A model generated the notes under the pieces. The model was not told the origin of the DNA, did no database searches, and saw only the letters and a program-made list of their open reading frames with translations. From assembly GCA_045538195.1 (NCBI GenBank), contig JAZSRA010000065.1:1-24000 (forward strand): a stretch of 24,000 nt of DNA. The letters run 5' to 3'. Below, one piece after another: positions 1 through 9,888 of this stretch. The position numbers and the translations under genes were made by a program. The stretch's first letter is position 1; each line of letters starts with the position of its first letter. This DNA is from Eubacteriales bacterium (GTDB taxonomy: Bacteria; Bacillota; Clostridia; Oscillospirales; CAG-272).

Positions 1-399
1 ATCGTAATAAAGCTTAAGCTTACTTGCGGCGTAGTTCCTGAAATCCTCGCAGAAGCTTTCAAGATCTACTCCCTTTTCATAGCTCTGATGTCCGTAGCGC
101 GTGCAGTTCCTGTCTATCTCACTAAGCATGCAAAAACGCTCCACGTTCTCTTGCGCTTTTTCGTCGTCTTTCCCCGAACCGTTAGCCGTAGGGTTAGGGG
201 CTATTCTATATTCCACCTTAGGCTCTTTTGACTCCTGAGACATGATCGTAATGATCAATATGGCAACGATGACCAAAACTACCACAAAATAGACAATTAT
301 AGCAGGCATAGAGGTCAGCCTTCCTATCAAGGTCGTGCGAGCCGCTAATGCCGCTTCGCTAACGGCGGCATTTGTTAAAATTGAAAAAATGTATGACAT
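1..399 (-). CDS. Partial CDS (first 133 aa; continues past the window start): membrane-anchored protein paralogous to the post-TM module of the upstream 1124-aa protein
   Basis: Absent from the ORF track because it runs off the edge. Minus-strand ATG at 399-397 with AAGGAG 8 nt upstream, and open to position 1 (MSYIFSILTNAAVSEAALAARTTLIGRLTSMPAIIVYFVVVLVIVAILIITIMSQESKEPK...). One hydrophobic helix. The segment VDLESFCEDFRNYAASKLKLYYD aligns with VDFASAAAEFEKFAAERGFKVSGD of the preceding protein. Confidence 0.6.
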   Translation of the reverse strand, partial: MSYIFSILTNAAVSEAALAARTTLIGRLTSMPAIIVYFVVVLVIVAILIITIMSQESKEPKVEYRIAPNPTANGSGKDDEKAQENVERFCMLSEIDRNCTRYGHQSYEKGVDLESFCEDFRNYAASKLKLYYD

Positions 400-422
400 T
401 GATCGTACTCCTTAGACTGCTC

Positions 423-3400
423 TTACGCTCTGTTCGATCCGCACGCCTTGATAACTCTCTTGCAAGCCTCTGCGCGGTCTTCACCAAATATAGCCTCAAC
501 GGTCTCATCGAGGCTCTTACCGTCCTCTGCCGTGGCGCCCTTTTGAGCCAACATTACGGGGACCATCAGCTTAGCGGCAACCGCCTCATCAACGGCATTG
601 ATCTGCTCGCCGCCGCATGCAAGATAAACGTATGCAAACTTTTCAAGGCAAAGCCAAAGCTTGTTTCCGATATGGAAGGGGGTTTGATGATTGATCTTTT
701 CCTCAAATCGGTCGATCTTCTTCCAAAGCTCCTCGTCAACAGCAAATCGGGACGCAGTTCTCTCAACGAGCCAATCCAACTGATAATAGCTGAATTTATG
801 AACGGTGGACAACTGCTCACTTGCGGCACATTCCGCAATATCGAACAAATTGACCGTAGCAATCTCTGACACGAAATCGGGAAGCTCTGCCACAGATGCG
901 CCCTCGGCAAGATTTATCACAAACCACACGTTTTTGGGAATATAATAGGAAGTCTCTATATTTCTCTCGTTAAAAACGGTAACGTGATTATTTGCAAGAG
1001 GATTCTTTACATAATTCACATAGGAGGAGAAATAGAGAGGCATATTCGCGCCTACAACCTGAGTTAATGCCGCAAGATGAATACTGTGTCCGTTGTTTCT
1101 GGCAGACTCCAAAGCATAATTTATATTTGTCTTGACCTTGTTGCCTTGACCGTCGGTTTTAAACAGAACGCTCTCACAGCTATTGTAGTTATCGTTTACA
1201 CTGTCGATAAACAAAGGGGACTCAAAATAATTGGAAAGCATGAGTAAGAGGGTCTTGAAATCATTGTCGTTCATGCCTTTAACGATCACAAGTCTGGATG
1301 CGGAAAGCGCGGCAAAGATGTTCTTCACTACGTCGCCGCTTACCTTAAATCCTCTTTCTGCGGCAAATTTTTCAAATTCCGCAGCGGCAGACGCAAAATC
1401 CACCTCCCTGTCAATATAGCGCAGGTACTCCGAATCAACGCCTTCTATACGCTCCTCGGTATCAGCGGCAACAGCTTCATCGGCAACGTCAAACTCATCA
1501 ACAAACATTTTTTCCGCATTATAAGCAGAAATCTTCTCCGAGTCCTCGAACATCTTACTGTTCTTTTCATTCAAAGCCGCTTTTTCCGCTTTTCTGATCT
1601 TACTTCTTCTTATCGCCTCGGTTACAAAGAACACGATCGAGGATATTCCCAACACAATGCAGAAAATATCAAAAAACGCCGAATCAAGACTATTCAAAGC
1701 GCAATATATTTTTAAAATTATTGCAAGCGACATAGCGGCCGCTCCCGCTACAATATTGAATATCGACTTTTTCATAGGTTTAAGTTTAGCCTCCAATTTA
1801 AAGTTATCGGAATTAATATTTGATTCCGAATAAATATAGTCACTGATCTTCTTTCCGTCGTATTCAGGCGGCTCCGAACCTGCTGAAATGATTTTTTTCA
1901 GTCTGATATCTTTCAGCGAAGATCCGATATACACCGTGTATTTGCCGGACTCTGTAACAAATCCGCCTTTTTTCGGTGAATATATTTCCGGTATCCTCAA
2001 TGGGATCTGAACCGTTTTCGTCTCGCCGGGACGAAGCTCGACCCGAGCAAATCCGCAAAGCTCCTTCAGAGGACGTATTGCGCCCAGATCTTCATATCCC
2101 ACGTACATCTGGACTGTCTCGACGCCTTCCATAGCCCCGTCATTTTTCACGGTAAAGCTAACAGCATCCTTAGATACCGTCATAGACGAATACGAAAAGC
2201 GCGTATAACTCAAGCCGTGACCGAAAGGAAATCCGTCAAATTCTTCTTCATAATCGTAATAACGGTACCCGATAAAGGGACCTACGCAAAGCTTATCTCG
2301 CACTCTCCTTGTTTTGTAATCCAAATATCTTTGCTCGGTATCAAAATAAAGAGAATTAGCAAGCTTACCCGAGGGACTCACCTTTCCGCTCAAAATGTTC
2401 TGCAACGCCTTTGCACAAAACTTAGTTTTGATCGGTGCCATAACCATTGCAGAGCAGTTCTCGGGGTATCCTACGTCAAGAGGAGTATCCGATGGCAATA
2501 TTGCAATGATCTTCTTATTTTCGGTCTCAAGTGCCTCCAAAAGCCTTTTTTGATTTGCAGGAATAGACAGCTTTCTCTCTTTATGAAGCTTAGAAGCTCT
2601 TTTATCGGTAAATCCGAGGAACAGAAGAACCGCGTCAGCGCTCTTGGCAAGGGACACCGCTCCCTCCACCAGCTCCTCGCTTCTGTCCACGGAAAGATCG
2701 TATCCTCTTTCCAAGCCGGAAACTTGATATCCGCTCTCCGACAATAAAGTCGAAAGCTCATCGGCAAGACAGCAGCCTTCCCCTCCGGACGGCATGGCGA
2801 CGTCTCCGATCAAAGCGATCTTTTCAGAGCGTTTTAACGGCAGACGTCCATTTTGATTTTTAAGCAATACAACCGAGCTTTCCGTGGCTTTTATTGCCAA
2901 CGACTCGTTAGTATCAACAAGGGACAAATTAGGCTTTCTCTTTACCGCAAAAACAAAATCCAGCAATCTATCAAGAGCGTCGTCGATCATCTCCTCAGAA
3001 ATTGCTCTGCCCTTTAAGACTTCACTCTGAAGCTCCTCAACGGTTGAAGTGCCGTGTTCTATCATTTTGGTGAGCTGCTTGTACCTTGACAACGCCGATT
3101 CAAGAGCAAGCGCCGAGCCTTCAAAGAAAAGTCCGCCTCGGTTGATATAGGACACAGTCTTTTCCGCTGTAACGTGAGCGCACAGCGGCGTAGCGTTTTG
3201 CGCTACCTTTCCCTCGGAAACCATTCTCATAAGAGAAGAATTGAGTGCCTTGTAATTTTCAGCCGAGGTGTCCGGTTCTGTAAATATCGCCGCGCAACCT
3301 GTCTTTGAGGTCGTCTCAATATATGGCTTTACTATGTATTCGTATATAAAGCGTTCGTCAGGCTTCTCGTCAAGCCACTCGGCCTCGTCATTATAAACAC

Positions 3401-3797
3401 CAAAACCGCCAACTCCTGCGGCAATCCCCGCTCTCTCTGCCGCCGCGAGATATTCTTTTGATATCTCCGCGCCTAAAAACGGGTCTTCCGAGATAGAAAT
3501 TCTATACGGATTTATCCTAACTCTGGGTTCGGGGATCTTTACAAATCCCATTTCGCGAGAGCCTGCGAGTCTAAAAATATCGTCTGCAACACTTGACACA
3601 AGAGAAACGTCCCAAGTGTTAGACAGCGCTTTCGGTGAGGGATAAACATCTCCGCAAAGCGTCCACACGTCTCCTATACGCACTTCCGGTATGCCAAGCG
3701 CTCTGAAATTTTTATCGGATAAAGCATTAATATCACATAATATGCGAATTTTATCCACATCCGATAATTTTTTTATGACATCAAAATATTTCAACAT
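423..3797 (-). CDS. Large fusion protein: GH3-like glycoside hydrolase module (N-domain, alpha/beta sandwich domain, Fn3-like domain) + 2 TM helices + degenerate P-loop/AAA(McrB)-like C-terminal module
   Basis: GH3 signatures: ISEDPFLGAEI, VVLLKNQNGRLPL, ADAVLLFLG, VSPSGKLANSLY, GHGLSYTRFSYS and PLKELCGFARVELRPGETKTV. TM hairpin: IFNIVAGAAAMSLAIILKIYCAL and FFDIFCIVLGISSIVFFV. The C-terminal region has AAA-like spacing (LVIVKGMNDNDFKTLLLML ... IHLAALTQV ... YIPKNVWFVINLAEG). The track start at 3815 is TTG; ATG at 3797 (MLKYFD) has GGAG 6 nt upstream. Confidence 0.8.
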   Translation of the reverse strand: MLKYFDVIKKLSDVDKIRILCDINALSDKNFRALGIPEVRIGDVWTLCGDVYPSPKALSNTWDVSLVSSVADDIFRLAGSREMGFVKIPEPRVRINPYRISISEDPFLGAEISKEYLAAAERAGIAAGVGGFGVYNDEAEWLDEKPDERFIYEYIVKPYIETTSKTGCAAIFTEPDTSAENYKALNSSLMRMVSEGKVAQNATPLCAHVTAEKTVSYINRGGLFFEGSALALESALSRYKQLTKMIEHGTSTVEELQSEVLKGRAISEEMIDDALDRLLDFVFAVKRKPNLSLVDTNESLAIKATESSVVLLKNQNGRLPLKRSEKIALIGDVAMPSGGEGCCLADELSTLLSESGYQVSGLERGYDLSVDRSEELVEGAVSLAKSADAVLLFLGFTDKRASKLHKERKLSIPANQKRLLEALETENKKIIAILPSDTPLDVGYPENCSAMVMAPIKTKFCAKALQNILSGKVSPSGKLANSLYFDTEQRYLDYKTRRVRDKLCVGPFIGYRYYDYEEEFDGFPFGHGLSYTRFSYSSMTVSKDAVSFTVKNDGAMEGVETVQMYVGYEDLGAIRPLKELCGFARVELRPGETKTVQIPLRIPEIYSPKKGGFVTESGKYTVYIGSSLKDIRLKKIISAGSEPPEYDGKKISDYIYSESNINSDNFKLEAKLKPMKKSIFNIVAGAAAMSLAIILKIYCALNSLDSAFFDIFCIVLGISSIVFFVTEAIRRSKIRKAEKAALNEKNSKMFEDSEKISAYNAEKMFVDEFDVADEAVAADTEERIEGVDSEYLRYIDREVDFASAAAEFEKFAAERGFKVSGDVVKNIFAALSASRLVIVKGMNDNDFKTLLLMLSNYFESPLFIDSVNDNYNSCESVLFKTDGQGNKVKTNINYALESARNNGHSIHLAALTQVVGANMPLYFSSYVNYVKNPLANNHVTVFNERNIETSYYIPKNVWFVINLAEGASVAELPDFVSEIATVNLFDIAECAASEQLSTVHKFSYYQLDWLVERTASRFAVDEELWKKIDRFEEKINHQTPFHIGNKLWLCLEKFAYVYLACGGEQINAVDEAVAAKLMVPVMLAQKGATAEDGKSLDETVEAIFGEDRAEACKRVIKACGSNRA

Positions 3798-3836
3798 ATT
3801 GAACTCCGAAATCAATCTATATCTGTTTTAATCCGC

Positions 3837-4490
3837 TTAATTTACAGGCGTACCGTATGTCTCTTCGCCTAAGGCTCCGTTTTCGGTATCTTCTGCTCCA
3901 ATTTCGACTGTTGTTTCGTTTTCTTCGCCTTCGTTTTCAAAAAAATTATAGCTGAAAAAGACATCAAAAACACACATTATCACCAGCAAAAACGCAACCA
4001 ACGTAGCTATCAGTGCCGAAAGCCGCGGTTTTCCGAACTCTCTCGGGCGTATCGAAAATTCTGTTATATAGTTTGCTCTTGGAGCATTCTTGATTATCTG
4101 CCCGTCAGCCTTGACGTAATCCACGGTAGATCTGCCGTTTCGGACGGTATATTTATATCGTTCAGACATAATTTTCGTGAACACAATTCTAAAATCCGCA
4201 CAATACTCGTCCACCACTATCATCGCAGGAGCAACGTAAGTCGTTCCGGGCATAAAGTTGATGCCGTTATATTTAATTTTTAAGGTTTCAAGTATTTTTC
4301 CCGAAGCATCCATCTGGACAACGGAAAATTCCATAGCGTTCACAACGTAATCAAGCTCATTTAAAAATCTGAGCGTTAAGCATTTCTTTTCGTTGTGTCT
4401 GACAAAAATATACTCTTTTACCGAAACAAGATCGCTGATCTGGGGATGTTCATAAACTCCCTTGGAAATATATTGTCGTTGCGAAGTCAT
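3837..4490 (-). CDS. Hypothetical single-pass membrane protein (soluble beta-rich N-domain, one TM helix, acidic C-tail)
   Basis: The ORF-track start at 4517 is TTG; ATG at 4490 (MTSQRQ) has GAAAGGA 7 nt upstream. TM helix LSALIATLVAFLLVIMCVFDVFF, then the tail ENEGEENETTVEIGAEDTENG. No family recognised. Confidence 0.65.
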   Translation of the reverse strand: MTSQRQYISKGVYEHPQISDLVSVKEYIFVRHNEKKCLTLRFLNELDYVVNAMEFSVVQMDASGKILETLKIKYNGINFMPGTTYVAPAMIVVDEYCADFRIVFTKIMSERYKYTVRNGRSTVDYVKADGQIIKNAPRANYITEFSIRPREFGKPRLSALIATLVAFLLVIMCVFDVFFSYNFFENEGEENETTVEIGAEDTENGALGEETYGTPVN

Positions 4491-4540
4491 TTCAAAATCC
4501 TTTCTCGGATAAACCAATTTCTGATTTTCTGATCGTTGCT

Positions 4541-5251
4541 TTATTTGAATATCTTTACGTCTTTTTCACGGTGAAAAACAAGTATGATTCCCGCAAGCGC
4601 AGCACCCGCCGCCGCCGAAACCAGTATTTGCATAAGGGGCAACCCTGCCGCGATAAGCTTTATTGAAGGGAGTATTACCTCGATCAATGAAAATACCGAC
4701 GATCTTAAGGTCAAATATTCCACCACGGTAAGCACGGCAGTCACAGCGGCAAAGGTAACGACTCTCCAAATCGAATAATGCATTTTAGGGCTACCCGGAA
4801 CAATAAATCTGTTCACTTCCTTAACAACAACACAAACATAAGCAGTATTTTCGGGAAGAATAGCTGCCGCAGCGTCGCCAGATGAAACCTTTGGCACAGA
4901 TATTTGTATCGTGTCTATCTCATTGTTGCCTGAATCCAATGCAACCACGTCATATTTAATGGAAAGTATTCTCTTGTCAAATTTGCATTTTATGTACTTA
5001 TCACCGTCGTTTACGGAAAGTATATACTGCTTTATGTATTTTCCCGTCTCACCGTAGGGCTTATAGGTAATTGCTCTGCCGCCCTCGAAAACATATTTTT
5101 CGAGTCCTCTGTCTCCCATGTCCTGCACATTATAGTTCGCTTTCAGTAAAAACAAGGGCAATATCTTAGACACAAGGGCAACGTACAGAGACAAACTGAA
5201 AACAAATATTATTATTTGTGTCGGGATCGACATTGTGATCATTGTTGTCAT
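4541..5251 (-). CDS. Hypothetical polytopic membrane protein (N-terminal TM anchor, about 120-aa domain related to the 217-aa neighbour, C-terminal TM bundle)
   Basis: ATG at 5251 with AGGAGA 5 nt upstream. Hydrophobic segments at both ends. Central KYIKCKFDKRILSIKYDVVALDSGNNEIDTIQISVP resembles KKCLTLRFLNELDYVVNAMEFSVVQMDASGKILETLKIKY of the neighbouring protein. Confidence 0.65.
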   Translation of the reverse strand: MTTMITMSIPTQIIIFVFSLSLYVALVSKILPLFLLKANYNVQDMGDRGLEKYVFEGGRAITYKPYGETGKYIKQYILSVNDGDKYIKCKFDKRILSIKYDVVALDSGNNEIDTIQISVPKVSSGDAAAAILPENTAYVCVVVKEVNRFIVPGSPKMHYSIWRVVTFAAVTAVLTVVEYLTLRSSVFSLIEVILPSIKLIAAGLPLMQILVSAAAGAALAGIILVFHREKDVKIFK

Positions 5252-5304
5252 TGTTATCTCCTGAACTTTGTAATATTTAATATAACCGATATAACCGTCA
5301 GAAT

Positions 5305-6795
5305 TTATTTGGCATATTTAGAGAATATCCTTCTCACGTCTTCCTCGGTAACGGTCGAACCACCCAGATGCTTCAGTATTTCCTCGGCAACGGACGTTGC
5401 CATATCGTCCGGCAACGTAATACCGTATTCTTTGATGTATTCCCGGGCATAGGATGCAAGTACCTTTGCCTTTTCTTCTTCACTGGAATATCCTCTGTCG
5501 TTTACCTTGTTGATAGCATCGGCAATATCTTCCATCAACACATTGTATTTTGATGAATCGTAGTCAAATTCTCGGATATATTTCGAAACCGCCGCCATTG
5601 CTATTGAAGAAACGCTGATGCCGCTCATGTTGGGGTTTTCCTTAAGAATAGCATCCAGCCTGCCAACAATATCGCTTTCATTCACATACTCTACAAGAGA
5701 ATTGAAATTGCTCATATTTACGGCAAAAAGATCGCTATCCATCACTGCAGCGTATAGTTTCAACAAAGTGATCATATTAGCCTTTGCGCTGTGATGGTCT
5801 GTGTTTTGACAAACCGAAAGTATTTCATCAAAGGCGGGTTCGATCAGATCGTTGGTAACAGGCTTCGCTATGCCAAAAACCCGATCACCGTTTTTCCATG
5901 CAGTTGCAAAACTTGAAATATATTCACCCAAAGCTCCCGAGAATAGCTCCAGTCTTTCTACGTTATCGCAAAGCCCATATATTCGGCTTATTTGCTCGTC
6001 AGTTGCGTTTTGGGGATCAACGAATGCGCTATACGTGTACTTGAGATCATCAAAAACATCTACCAGTGCGTCTGCTTCGGAAATCAAGTGGACTCTTTCA
6101 CCGTAAACCTCAGCGCTTGCGGCACTATAATACATCAGTTTGCCTCCAAGCTGATAAAAAACATTTCCGCAAAAGTCGTTTGCATAAACAGACAAGTCTA
6201 TTTCGTTTGCACTTTCCGTCACGCTATCCGTCTCGCTTAGTTTAAAATTGCCAACAATACTCAAAGTCTTGTTTGCAACGTCAAGAGTTCCCATTATCGG
6301 ACTCGTTATTACCATAGTTACAACAACCGAAACGATCACACCCGTAATGACCGACAGCACTTTGTCGTTTTGATCAAAATAAGAGTTTTCCTCTTTACAG
6401 TATTCTGGCGTATCAGCGAAACGTCTGATCTTGCTTTTACACACTATACGAACGATAAATTGAGTAATAGCGCGAACCGCAAAAAACACCGCAACGAAAA
6501 GTAGCGACCCGAGGACCATTCCCATGATAGCCTCAACAAATACGTTTACCCAGGAATAGTCTTGAACCAATTCCCGATACACAGAAAGGTTATTGAGAAT
6601 TAAATACGATACAAGGCTTGAAATGACTTCGGAAATGAGATATGTAACCAAAGCGGAAAAAATCACAGAAAACACAACTATAGCAAGTGAGATAAGGGTC
6701 ATTCTGAACCCTTTTTTGATGCTTCGATACACCTCCGTTGCAGTCACCGAGAAAAATATCAACAATATTGCGATCGAAAATAAGCTAAAAGTCAT
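5305..6795 (-). CDS. Membrane protein with a CvpA-like N-terminal TM bundle and a roughly 300-aa helical C-terminal domain
   Basis: ATG at 6795 with AAGAGGA 7 nt upstream. There are 4-5 N-terminal TM helices (FSIAILLIFFSVTA, LISLAIVVFSVIFSALVTYLI, GMVLGSLLFVAVFFAV, VITGVIVSVVVTMVI). The CvpA-family call is by overall resemblance only. Confidence 0.6.
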   Translation of the reverse strand: MTFSLFSIAILLIFFSVTATEVYRSIKKGFRMTLISLAIVVFSVIFSALVTYLISEVISSLVSYLILNNLSVYRELVQDYSWVNVFVEAIMGMVLGSLLFVAVFFAVRAITQFIVRIVCKSKIRRFADTPEYCKEENSYFDQNDKVLSVITGVIVSVVVTMVITSPIMGTLDVANKTLSIVGNFKLSETDSVTESANEIDLSVYANDFCGNVFYQLGGKLMYYSAASAEVYGERVHLISEADALVDVFDDLKYTYSAFVDPQNATDEQISRIYGLCDNVERLELFSGALGEYISSFATAWKNGDRVFGIAKPVTNDLIEPAFDEILSVCQNTDHHSAKANMITLLKLYAAVMDSDLFAVNMSNFNSLVEYVNESDIVGRLDAILKENPNMSGISVSSIAMAAVSKYIREFDYDSSKYNVLMEDIADAINKVNDRGYSSEEEKAKVLASYAREYIKEYGITLPDDMATSVAEEILKHLGGSTVTEEDVRRIFSKYAK

Positions 6796-6915
6796 ATCTT
6801 TGTCCTCTTTTCGGGAGTAATAATTAAAAAGCTTGCATCAGACCTAATCAACAACTAAAAACACTTTTAGCAGTGCCTAATCTGAAGCATATTTCACAGT
6901 CAATAAATATTCATA

Positions 6916-6944
6916 ATTATACCATATACACTCGAATTTGTCAA
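6916..6944 (-). promoter_or_regulatory. Consensus sigma-A type promoter for the 6795->1 operon
   Basis: Minus strand reads TTGACA (6944-6939), a 17-nt spacer, then TATAAT (6921-6916). This lies about 120 nt upstream of the ATG at 6795. Confidence 0.6.
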
Positions 6945-6992
6945 CTGAAATATGTGACACCAGAAAAATTGAACAAGTTCATATCTCAAATT

Positions 6993-7031
6993 AAAACGGC
7001 TGACACCATCGTGTTTGATAGTGTCAGCCGT
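6993..7031 (-). terminator. Rho-independent terminator candidate for the rex-hydS-hydA operon
   Basis: 11-bp perfect inverted repeat ACGGCTGACAC (6996-7006) / GTGTCAGCCGT (7021-7031) with a 14-nt loop. On the minus strand it is followed by TTTAATTT. It lies about 245 nt downstream of the stop at 7277. Confidence 0.5.
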
Positions 7032-7276
7032 ATGAGTCGTAATGCTAAGTAGGTTTTAGATCTATGAGTTCGGCGTAAACCTTGTCTTCTTGAATGATCC
7101 TCTGATCAATATTCAGTCCTCAATTAGACCAAGAACAACCTTCCTAATATCAATATAGGATCGGTAATGCCGCAATCGATGACTTCTTTATAGGCAACAT
7201 CCAATTGATAAACAACTTCATGATGGCTCTTGACAAAGAGCAGATCAAATATTTAAGCAAGCCGTTATCAATTTCT

Positions 7277-8707
7277 TTATTTTAAAATAGATATCGCATC
7301 ACCGATAGTCTTTTCAAGTGACTCACGGCCGTATTTGTCAACCTCGGCTTTATTTTTTTCACCGTGGGTGAGGCATCCTGCGCCGCCGATACAACCGCCG
7401 ACACACGCCATGCCCTCGATAAAGTTGCCGTCAAGCGCACCCTTGCTCAGCTTTAGCAGAGCCACACGGCAGGCTTCAATTCCGTCGCATACCACGGGCT
7501 TTATCTCAAAGTCGATGTTCTGCTCCTTCATCGCCTGTACTGCCGCATCGGTAAGACCTCCGCTGCGGGCAAAGATACGACCGAAGTAGGAAGCGTTATC
7601 GAGGACTCCCTCCTCAAGGGATGCGATATCAAGATCACGGCTGTCAAAGAGTGCCTGAAGCTCCTCAAAGGTCAGCACGGTATCCACGTAAGGCTTGACA
7701 GACTCGAGCTGAGCCTCTGCCTTTTTAGCGGTACAAGGGCCGATAAAGATGACCTTTGCGTTAGGTGTAGTCTCCTTAATGTACTTTGCAAGCACCGCCA
7801 TGGGAGACATATTATGAGAAATATGCTCAACCAGATTCGGGAACGTGGACTTTATGTACTGCACGAATGCGGGACAGCAGGAGCTTGTAAGAAGACCCTT
7901 TTCGGAAAGCTCTCTTGCTTCTGCCATAGCCACCATATCCGCGCCAAGTGCCGCCTCGATAACGTCGTGGAAGCCGAGCTTTTTAAGTCCCGTTACCACC
8001 TGACCCAACTTTGCGTAAGAGAATTGGCTCGAAATAGAGGGAGCAACAACGGCATATACCTTGTAATTGCCGCCTCTTGTGTCGCTCCTGCTCTTTTTGA
8101 GAATATCGATGGCGTTCAGTATAAAGGACTTGTCCATAATTGCGCCGAAGGGACACTGATATACGCAAGCGCCACACTGTATGCACTTGTGGTTGTCGAT
8201 AGCCGCCGCACTTTGCTCGTTCATAGAAATTGCCTTGACCTTGCAAGCATTCTGGCAAGGACGCTTGCGGCTGACGATAGCGGTATAGGGGCAGACCCTG
8301 GCACAGGCACCGCACTCCTTACACTTGGATTTGTCGATGTGTGCAACGTGATTGTGGTCGAAGGTGATAGCACCGAATTTGCACACGTCCTCGCAACGGT
8401 GAGCGAGACAGCCGCGGCAGGCGTTGGTCACCTCATAACCGCCAACGGGACACTCGTCGCAGGCGATATCTATGACCTGTATAATATTAGGATTATCCTT
8501 GTCGCCGCCCATCGCCAGCTTGACTCTCTCGCCAAGAATTGCTCTTTCCTTATATACGCAACAGCGCATAGTAGGCTCGTTACCTGGTACGATGTTTTTG
8601 GGAATATCCATAATATTATCAAGCAGCTTATCCTCCCACGCGAGGCGAGCCACTTCACGCAATACTTTATATTTTAAATGTTGTACTTTTGTATCAAATT
8701 TACGCAT
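7277..8707 (-). CDS. hydA: [FeFe] hydrogenase, monomeric ferredoxin-type (group B-like), with N-terminal Cys-rich and 2x[4Fe-4S] ferredoxin domains
   Basis: H-cluster motifs LTSSCCPAFV, FIGPCTAKKAEA and EGMACVGGCIGGAG. Ferredoxin motifs CKECGACARVCP and CIQCGACVYQCP. N-terminal MRCCVYKERAI and CDECPVGGY. The track start at 8719 is TTG; ATG at 8707 (MRKFD) sits 8 nt after the PP2C stop, with GAGGTG as RBS. Confidence 0.9.
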   Translation of the reverse strand: MRKFDTKVQHLKYKVLREVARLAWEDKLLDNIMDIPKNIVPGNEPTMRCCVYKERAILGERVKLAMGGDKDNPNIIQVIDIACDECPVGGYEVTNACRGCLAHRCEDVCKFGAITFDHNHVAHIDKSKCKECGACARVCPYTAIVSRKRPCQNACKVKAISMNEQSAAAIDNHKCIQCGACVYQCPFGAIMDKSFILNAIDILKKSRSDTRGGNYKVYAVVAPSISSQFSYAKLGQVVTGLKKLGFHDVIEAALGADMVAMAEARELSEKGLLTSSCCPAFVQYIKSTFPNLVEHISHNMSPMAVLAKYIKETTPNAKVIFIGPCTAKKAEAQLESVKPYVDTVLTFEELQALFDSRDLDIASLEEGVLDNASYFGRIFARSGGLTDAAVQAMKEQNIDFEIKPVVCDGIEACRVALLKLSKGALDGNFIEGMACVGGCIGGAGCLTHGEKNKAEVDKYGRESLEKTIGDAISILK

Positions 8708-8715
8708 TTTACACC

Positions 8716-9888
8716 TCAAAAATAACTAACTTTAATGCGTTTGCCCATTTTCTTGAGACAAGCAGATAATTCCTCAACAAGATTCATTTTGATGTTGAAA
8801 TTGATTGGAAGATCAGGGTTTTGATGTGCGGGGTTGACCGCTCTGCCGACGTAGAAGTTGATATCCGTCGCTTCTTCAAACAAAAGTCGGCTGATAAGTG
8901 ACGCGCCATCCTTTTTAAAGCTCCATTCCTCGTAAAGTTCATTCTTGCCAAGGTAATCCTTTGCATACTGAATGACCTTGTTCATGGTAATAACCCCTTC
9001 GGTTACGAGGTCAACGCCCTCGATGCGCGCGATAGGGGGAACGTCGCTTCTTTCAAAGTTAAGGCTTGCCTGAATGGGCTTGCCCAGATATTTTGACGCG
9101 ATTGAAGAAGTAGTGCCGCCGCAGATGATGTGCTTACCCTCTTTGGAGAAGAAAAGCGACATCATTCTATTTGCGTCGTCGCGGTTGGAGGGAGGCCCAA
9201 AAAGAATATTCATAGGCTCTCGCTTTCTGATCTTAATAACGCAAGCGGTAGTATCGTCTCCCGGCTTGTGACCGTAAAGCTTGTCGCATTCGTCAACCAG
9301 CATCGTTGAAAGATTTTTGGCAGTAAAGCCGCCCGCCACCATCGCCTGCATATAGTCGGCGATATCCTGCCTTTTCCAACCGAAATTGTATTTCCCACCC
9401 ATTCCTGCGTGGGGACATCCGTCGCTCATAGCGATAAACGTGTCGTCCTCCTGCAGTTTAATGGTGGATTTGTATATTTTTTTGCCACCGATGTTCATTT
9501 CGGTCATAGGATAATCGTACTGATCGTAATTTCTTATTATGATCACGTGAGGATTATCGTACTGAATGATCTCGGCTATTTCGTTGTTCAGAAGATGAAT
9601 AATAGTAAAGGTGGAATACGCCACGCCGCGTACCGAGCAAACGGGAAGCGTTGCGGCTATGGTAGACACACATTCTTCAATGGGAAGTCCTGCCGCCATC
9701 ATCGTTGAGATGATCTTGGAGGTCAGAGTGGAGAGAATGCTTGCCTTAACACCCGAACCCAGACCGTCTGCAAGTACGATGACCGTGGAATTTTCGTTTT
9801 CCTCCACGATGTCTACGTGGTCGCCGCAAAGCTCCTCGCCGACGTGATTGATGCTCTTATATCCGATATCTGCACACAAATCATTCAT
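8716..9888 (-). CDS. PP2C/SpoIIE-family serine phosphatase with an uncharacterised roughly 170-aa C-terminal domain
   Basis: N-terminal GEELCGDHVDIVEENENSTVIVLADGLGSGVKASILS ... FIAMSDGCPHAG is typical of the SpoIIE/RsbU PP2C fold. The ATG at 9888 overlaps the hydS stop by 8 nt (ATGAATGA). Confidence 0.85.
   Translation of the reverse strand: MNDLCADIGYKSINHVGEELCGDHVDIVEENENSTVIVLADGLGSGVKASILSTLTSKIISTMMAAGLPIEECVSTIAATLPVCSVRGVAYSTFTIIHLLNNEIAEIIQYDNPHVIIIRNYDQYDYPMTEMNIGGKKIYKSTIKLQEDDTFIAMSDGCPHAGMGGKYNFGWKRQDIADYMQAMVAGGFTAKNLSTMLVDECDKLYGHKPGDDTTACVIKIRKREPMNILFGPPSNRDDANRMMSLFFSKEGKHIICGGTTSSIASKYLGKPIQASLNFERSDVPPIARIEGVDLVTEGVITMNKVIQYAKDYLGKNELYEEWSFKKDGASLISRLLFEEATDINFYVGRAVNPAHQNPDLPINFNIKMNLVEELSACLKKMGKRIKVSYF

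Follow-up and report, generated by a model that had tools for sequence, protein, structure and literature searches.

Membrane-anchored McrB-like GTPases beside giant surface proteins: a nine-gene operon of uncultured Clostridia and its possible role as an envelope machine

McrBC is known as a defence enzyme that cuts DNA. Its GTPase McrB assembles into a hexameric ring, the N-terminal domain of McrC (DUF2357) plugs this hexamer and stimulates the hydrolysis of guanosine triphosphate (GTP), and two rings are bridged by a McrC dimer. Here we describe an operon of nine genes, A-B-C-D-E-F-E′-G-H, the first part of which lies in a stretch of 24,000 nucleotides (nt) from an Eubacteriales bacterium (hereafter the window; contig C12, positions 1–24000, of an assembly of 148 contigs and 2.28 Mb that is 88% complete). 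In this operon an McrB-type motor and its activator appear to have been kept under selection in a nuclease-free, membrane-anchored form, always beside very large surface proteins. We consider the chances even that the operon is a membrane-embedded, nuclease-free derivative of the McrBC GTPases coupled to giant surface proteins, and that it works as a GTP-driven envelope machine.

The closest described relatives come from a survey of McrBC systems (Bell et al. 2024, eLife 13:RP94800, PMC11090510), in which CoCoPALM is named in one paragraph and defined by FtsB-like membrane-anchored McrB GTPases with coiled-coil McrC partners in the proximity of signal peptidases. CoCoPALM itself is unstudied, as the authors defer it to a later publication (PMC11090510). 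The operon described here shares with CoCoPALM a membrane-anchored McrB-like GTPase and a coiled-coil DUF2357 partner, both encoded among secreted or surface proteins. A locus of a sister family that fits CoCoPALM (G028) encodes a GTPase 48% identical to E, an S26 signal peptidase and an F-like DUF2357 protein, as well as further proteins with N-terminal sequences resembling signal anchors, which by eye are possibly TasA-like. Across the sister-family loci the GTPase domain is 48–49% identical to that of E, and the NNDD signature is present in both. By these sequence comparisons the sister group is CoCoPALM and the system belongs to the McrBC-derived world. The two also differ. None of the nine genes matches S26, and small secreted proteins of the G028 type are absent. 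By eye, no coiled coil, FtsB-like or other, is evident in the 60-residue linker behind the membrane anchor of E. The operon adds a twin-anchored GTPase pair, a fusion of a pseudo-GH3 (glycoside hydrolase family 3) module with a pseudo-GTPase, a CvpA-like protein (A), the small proteins B and C, and the giants G and H; in all, five gene families of its own are added to the motor pair.

Two further groups can be compared with the operon in the same way. With McrBC of E. coli (PDB 6hz4, 6ut6, 7vsr) it shares the AAA+ GTPase motifs and an adjacent gene for the DUF2357 partner. However, McrC carries a PD-(D/E)xK nuclease where F has a coiled coil, transmembrane (TM) helices stand in E in the place of the N-terminal DNA-binding domain, and the setting is a nine-gene membrane and surface operon. 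The CoCoNuTs (CnuB/CnuC) are also McrBC derivatives with coiled coils, some of them with the McrC nuclease lost or inactivated. According to the survey, HEPN or other nucleases are their constant partners, and RNA-binding domains form part of their proteins (PMC11090510), whereas neither a HEPN or other nuclease nor an RNA-binding domain was found in this operon, the proteins of which are membrane-bound. McrB, McrC, transglutaminase and transmembrane never occurred together in the literature searched, and there the operon is undescribed, as the initial annotation of the window had proposed; it represents a new form of a barely described kind of system.

Nine genes in one order

All operon features given below for the window lie on its minus strand. 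Gene A (496 amino acids (aa); 5305–6795) is followed by B (236 aa; 4541–5251), C (217 aa; 3837–4490), D (1124 aa; 423–3797) and the first 133 aa of E (1–399), which is open at the contig end. The open reading frames (ORFs) of A and B are led by ribosome-binding sites (RBSs). For C, the RBS and the orthologue starts favour the ATG at 4490 over a TTG at 4517, and for D they favour the ATG at 3797, the ORF itself opening at 3815. The initial annotation described five co-oriented genes with gaps of 24–53 nt. They are co-oriented and RBS-led, and the gaps A-B, B-C, C-D and D-E measure 53, 50, 39 and 23 nt, so that the range is 23–53 nt. These five genes are not the entire operon, as had been assumed; the window cuts inside the fifth of them. 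The operon of this genome was rebuilt across three of its contigs, with the relatives showing the same nine genes: C12 (reversed) carries A-B-C-D-E (N-terminus), C11 (2,560 bp) carries the tail of E, F (567 aa) and the N-terminus of E′, and C83 carries the tail of E′, G (801 aa) and H (1,543 aa), followed by housekeeping genes including rbfA. The C12 start, read as its reverse complement, is matched at 96% identity by the last 168 nt of C11 (2393–2560), and C11 and C83 share their opening sequence, which encodes the C-terminal tail of an E-type protein (C83: 1–239). A small class-3 lipase-like gene (Lipase_3, 9e-10) is located directly after H and before rbfA (C83, 7545–8198).

The whole order A-B-C-D-E-F-E′-G-H is present on single contigs in seven loci (L013, L014, L015, L019, L105, L109, L111) and extends to the start of G in L016; it is kept in at least nine species at 25–50% protein identity. 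In a tblastn table of 25 loci, B-C-D are contiguous in 24 (L012 stops where D ends). Where the DNA reaches far enough, A precedes them, save in L106, which has no A, and E follows them. As the A–D proteins of these loci are just 25–50% identical to those of the window and yet their genes are contiguous, the order has been preserved over deep divergence. Co-occurrence in other genomes, set beforehand as a test of the initial annotation, was thus observed, and the proposal of one conserved multi-subunit membrane system with internal paralogy, predicted to be co-transcribed, is supported.

A–D and E–H could still be two unrelated neighbours, so that the five genes would not belong to one system. 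A–D were confined to the genus among the genomes of the order that were drawn, whereas E-F-G-like sets are more widespread, and single loci lack A (L106) or both F and E′ (L017). We regard such a division as highly improbable, because D bears a dead copy of E's own domain, only 23 nt separate D from E, and neither a convincing terminator nor a strong promoter was found in the operon interior. Moreover, B-C-D-E are contiguous in every locus that reaches that far, and a B-like gene, a short D, E, F, G and H are adjacent again in a different family. A hairpin with a 10-bp stem and no proper T tract lies inside the 3′ end of D (492–515, minus strand) and is probably not a terminator.

The GTPase pair and its McrC-like partner

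Full-length orthologues of E match AAA_5 (1.4e-7) and the structure of E. coli McrB (6hz4; E 1.1e-5). All of them contain the Walker A sequence GMSGTGKT (pattern GxxGxGK[ST]), and their Walker B sequence VLDEMN aligns to IIDEIN of McrB (pattern hhhhDE). Their NNDD aligns without gaps to NTAD of McrB, the N-x(1-2)-D signature that follows the sensor-1 strand; an alternative reading is NxD with a further D behind it, the form seen in CoCoNuT and CoCoPALM. Judged by these motifs, E and E′ are membrane-anchored GTPases of the McrB family in which the Walker A, Walker B and N..D elements are intact, and GTPase activity is predicted for them. The part of E in the window comprises one TM segment (244–300), the linker and the start of the McrB-like GTPase domain. 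The anchors are the sole difference between the two proteins: a single TM helix in E, against a TM hairpin and a basic N-terminus in E′. The initial annotation saw no catalytic motif in any product; this holds for A–D but not for the fifth gene, the Walker A motif of which lies just past the window edge. Nor does the operon lack recognisable biochemistry, as the fifth gene and E′ belong to the McrB family, F has the McrC N-terminal domain, and G and H carry transglutaminase-like cores.

In the eight species with both copies assembled (loci L013–L016, L019, L105, L109 and L111), the 3′ 1,053–1,107 nt of E and E′ are 99.5–100% identical within a genome. Between species the same stretch is 69–79% identical, and 90% in one closely related pair. 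These direct repeats flanking F are, from the identities observed, a case of concerted evolution, with gene conversion apparently ongoing. The near-identical repeat of about 1.07 kb accounts for the breaks between C12, C11 and C83, for the contigs that end inside E in L004, L010, L018, L107, L108, L110 and L112, and for the length of most public F-bearing contigs, only 2.1–2.5 kb; the strong gene conversion of E and E′ thus systematically breaks metagenome assemblies at the operon locus, nearly all of the short-read ones among them. The two copies share just 54% identity in G801, a distant lineage, and the homogenisation is therefore lineage-specific. One locus (L017; G020:C2, 10415–13958) has the order D-E-G-H without F and E′, and F was not found anywhere in the G020 assembly. 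This picture would arise if the repeats of E and E′ had recombined and deleted the DNA between them, and also if the assembly had collapsed, the two being indistinguishable.

Approximately 2,000 homologues of F were found, many of which carry a precomputed annotation as DUF2357. The DUF2357 profile (PF09823) was matched by nine of 28 F members, at best with 1.6e-6, and by an F-like protein 30% identical to F with 4e-8. The N-terminal 310 residues of F are highly conserved and are followed by a coiled coil of variable length (about 200 residues) and a conserved basic C-terminal helix. In the AlphaFold2 model the coiled coil begins at residue 305, and helices 305–340 and 346–505 form a nearly continuous rod. 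A nuclease fold is absent from this model, no nuclease family was matched in the profile scans, and the alignment of 39 F sequences contains no conserved D..ExK block of the PD-(D/E)xK type. The most conserved stretch of F, residues 74–126, is disordered in the monomer model and may fold only inside the ring of its partner.

A pseudo-enzyme fusion, small membrane proteins and surface giants

The product of gene D begins with a pseudo-GH3 module, consisting of an N-domain (2916–3797), a GH3_C domain (2205–2873; Pfam 2.9e-27) and an Fn3-like domain (1917–2120; Pfam 1.9e-16), continues with a TM hairpin (1623–1763) and ends with a pseudo-McrB GTPase domain (426–1469). Residues 8–666 align to true GH3 enzymes at 25–29% identity (tblastn), and a few relatives match PF00933. 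The N-terminal 660 aa thus keep the three-domain layout (barrel, alpha/beta sandwich, Fn3-like) of GH3 beta-glucosidases and beta-xylosidases of the BglX type. Unlike in these enzymes, the nucleophile motif S/T-D-W reads C-A-H in the D of the window, with Ala in place of the nucleophilic Asp, and the module is predicted to be cytoplasmic and is fused to the TM hairpin and the dead GTPase. Across the D family the nucleophile position varies (A, R, N, E, K, D, H, S); the true-GH3 controls were 80 loci from a contig search with the D alignment, all of them ordinary GH3 genes. No hidden Markov model placed the genes in a sporulation or cell-wall recycling module, which agrees with the initial annotation; the only Pfam and NCBIfam hits of that kind were GH3 equivalog models far under their cut-offs.

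The C-terminal part of D, about 340 aa, is 18–21% identical to full-length E from relatives (BLASTP E 1e-7 to 4e-14), which confirms and extends the linker paralogy between D and the fifth gene noted by the initial annotation and, together with the Pfam matches and the alignments to true GH3 enzymes, corroborates its GH3-like/P-loop-like fusion. The Walker A, Walker B and N..D elements are lost without exception in the D of the window and the 11 further D proteins of the alignment, two of which are short variants without the GH3 module. These data indicate that D is a catalytically dead paralogue of E joined via a TM hairpin to a dead GH3 module, and that a single chain holds two clean natural pseudo-enzymes. 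Both TM helices have basic flanks on both sides, and by the positive-inside rule both large domains are predicted to be cytoplasmic.

The composition of D raises the question whether the system is a sensor or a quality-control device, in which the dead GH3 module would read a cytoplasmic cell-wall or glycan precursor while the GTPase ring acted as a MoxR-like chaperone or switch for transglutaminase-like membrane proteins. The GH3 fold kept over 660 aa with its nucleophile gone is what a binding module would look like, and the McrB family belongs to the AAA_5 branch together with MoxR-type ATPases. A widespread trio of a MoxR AAA+ protein, a DUF58 protein and a transglutaminase-like membrane protein, as in operons of the yeaC-yeaD-yebA type, offers an analogy. 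Nevertheless, we find this explanation quite unlikely: the GH3 module is dispensable, since short D variants lack it in G005, G010 and G653, neither a VWA nor a DUF58 partner is encoded, and the long coiled coil of F and the twin anchors of the GTPases suggest a mechanical architecture over a soluble chaperone.

Gene A encodes an N-terminal CvpA-like domain with four TM helices (aa 1–170; nt 6286–6795), followed by an all-helical domain of 325 aa. The protein of the window matches neither PF02674 nor any other Pfam family, even at E <= 10, whereas its orthologues in G005 and G010 score 38.6 and 31.9 bits against the PF02674 cut-off of 29.3 bits and the others are weak or faint; the CvpA-like assignment made initially has these two orthologues behind it, with no match of A itself. 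The AlphaFold2 model of A shows four long TM helices and the all-helical C-terminal domain (predicted local distance difference test (pLDDT) 84, predicted template modelling score (pTM) 0.76). A Foldseek search of this model against the PDB gave no fold match (best E 0.56).

The two small proteins B and C are without family matches, and B matches nothing in Pfam, NCBIfam or PADLOC. B comprises an N-terminal TM helix, a conserved cytoplasmic motif and beta domain (nt ~4802–5134) and a C-terminal pair of TM helices, and C comprises an N-terminal cytoplasmic beta domain (nt ~4113–4490), one TM helix (3966–4022) and an acidic tail predicted to lie outside. Among 1.84 billion representatives a B profile found only 433 sequences at E <= 1e-3. 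BLASTP detects nothing between B and C (E 3.1), but a profile–profile comparison (hhalign) aligns them with 85.6% probability (E 5.6e-6), and an independent set of orthologues does so with 50.8% (E 1.6e-4) in unchanged register. The shared beta-rich domain, already claimed by the initial annotation, is thus probable but not proven. B was also considered as a degenerate SipW/S26 signal peptidase; this was rejected, as B lacks a conserved Ser or His and its hhalign comparison with the S26-like protein of G028 gave a probability of 0.1%.

Natural fusions provide additional information on A, B and C. Four of the top 150 B matches (P0277, P0288, P0306, P0341) are A-B fusions of about 520 aa, to which A contributes its CvpA-like TM domain and the beginning of its outside domain, with a complete B attached. 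A and B are therefore functionally linked, and the fusions agree with the predicted topology. In L106 (2708–9943) the beta domain of C forms the N-terminus of a leucine-rich repeat (LRR) protein of 2,411 aa, and in G653 (L135, 7279–8487) a B-like domain is joined to an LRR-like tail; in both, the LRR-like part is predicted to be extracellular, and B/C-type proteins can therefore bear domains for which a position outside the membrane is predicted.

G and H are giant, N-terminally anchored proteins, each with a transglutaminase-like core (Transglut_core 1.6e-21 for G) and YDG-like repeats. By eye, Cys and His are present in the core, and the third position is Glu. These giants account for about half of the coding capacity of the operon. 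The positive-inside analysis assigns the GTPase and GH3 domains to the cytoplasm, whereas A's C-terminal domain, G and H would lie outside the membrane; the whole topology is a prediction.

Promoter, distribution and possible role

The perfect consensus promoter proposed in the initial annotation was confirmed. It is of the sigma-70 type (6944–6916, minus strand; TTGACA, 17 nt, TG-extended TGgTATAAT) and is the sole 12/12 match in 7.4 kb, in which weaker matches number 17, shuffled sequence leading one to expect 14.5. G007, the closest relative, keeps this promoter; its homology begins exactly at the −35 hexamer and continues through a 120-nt leader to the ATG of gene A, while all sequence upstream of the hexamer differs, which assigns the promoter to the operon. 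The 5′ leader (~115–120 nt; 6796..6915, minus strand) has the RBS AGAGGA at its end and is ~85–90% identical to that of G007. A regulatory RNA in this conserved leader was considered and rejected, as it matches no Rfam family and folds no better than shuffles (z 0.53).

Just ahead of the promoter, a terminator hairpin (7031–6996) ends the upstream (hydrogenase) operon; the upstream neighbours (7277–9888, minus strand) encode an [FeFe]-hydrogenase-like protein and a phosphatase of the PP2C/SpoIIE type and are unrelated to the operon studied here. A serine-recombinase remnant with stops and a frameshift lies at 6861–7262 on the plus strand, and the hydrogenase-operon hairpin falls inside it. The initial annotation took this relic as a hint of horizontal origin, but its match to the Resolvase N-terminal domain is weak (E 4.9e-4, under the Pfam cut-off) and it is not present at the corresponding place in G007, so that it says little about the origin of the operon.

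The C-terminal half of D was found once per genome in 24 of the 39 genomes of the genus, and in nine of the 16 of high quality. An even draw of 400 genomes from the other parts of the order, covering 30 families, gave no instance of it. Full-length D is represented by at least 120 metagenome protein clusters, all from uncultured Clostridia. In a class-wide draw with F, full-length F (41–43% identity) was found in another family, in genus g315, where its neighbours are a B-LRR gene, a short D, E, F, G and H; in a third family more distant E-F-E′ sets adjoin a giant G-related protein. The constant core of the system is therefore the GTPase and DUF2357 pair with the transglutaminase-like giants. 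By the same comparison of sequences, the dead GTPase and B form the next layer, and the CvpA-like A and the GH3 fusion look like lineage-specific additions. The flanks are housekeeping genes that differ in every species (with the exception of L105 and L112, which have common flanks), and there is no sign of a defence island or a mobile element.

McrBC ancestry is one argument for defence as an alternative. A membrane-tethered McrBC relative could sense or block incoming DNA or a phage-induced change of the envelope, leading to exclusion or abortive infection without a nuclease. The patchy presence within the genus, the divergence to 25–50% identity inside one genus, the genomic position that varies by species and the recombinase relic adjoining the operon would all fit such a role, as would the match of E and E′ to the PADLOC candidate PDC-M26A (1e-46). 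Still, no PADLOC model was matched by all components. The only matches are those of E and E′; A, B, C, D and G match nothing, F gives nothing but a weak match to DruC (E 0.0076), and the name PDC-M26 was not found in the literature searched. There is no nuclease, toxin or other recognisable effector among the nine genes, and the flanks are not defence islands. With about half of the coding capacity devoted to transglutaminase-like surface giants, no described defence architecture fits. A role in defence is thus unlikely in our opinion. A role in a surface structure is favoured over it because an effector is lacking, half of the operon is surface protein and the coupling of motor and giants is conserved across families.

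Several observations weigh against the envelope machine proposed here. Fast divergence, accessory presence (the operon is accessory, given the distribution of D in the genus) and the PADLOC match are all also usual in conflict systems. The middle of E and E′, from Walker A to N..D, is unassembled in the genome under study, so that their motifs were read in orthologues. The likeness of F to McrC comes from sequence profiles alone, as a Foldseek search of the F model against the PDB returned no McrC match (best E 0.06). Moreover, the steps of the mechanism outlined below are modelled on the McrBC architecture, and we only infer the formation of rings, the presence of D in them and the transmission of force.

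According to the envelope-machine explanation, E and E′ would form rings at the inner face of the membrane, which D might join as a non-catalytic member. F would enter the ring and switch on GTP hydrolysis, and its coiled coil might pair two rings, as the McrC dimer does. The TM segments present in A, B, C, D, E and E′ could then relay the motion or switching to G, H and the domain of A outside the membrane, with the outcome that a surface structure is assembled, anchored or remodelled. The dead GH3 module of D would most likely bind a cytoplasmic glycan or precursor and gate the motor, and B and C may serve as membrane-anchored cytoplasmic adaptors. In its most specific form, which we hold tentatively and at somewhat less than even chances, an McrB-type GTPase and an McrC N-terminal domain were taken over as the cytoplasmic motor of a trans-membrane apparatus that would build or run giant transglutaminase-bearing surface fibres or adhesins, with the dead glycosidase–dead motor protein as its regulatory subunit.

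The arrangement described here, with motor, activator and giants side by side, is found again in several families of uncultured gut Clostridia. Should the motor have a mechanical or regulatory task at the envelope, the operon would clearly exemplify the reuse of a defence machine for the cell surface and would open a first way into CoCoPALM-like systems, which are unstudied. It would also represent a mechanochemical envelope machine without a described counterpart in Gram-positive bacteria.

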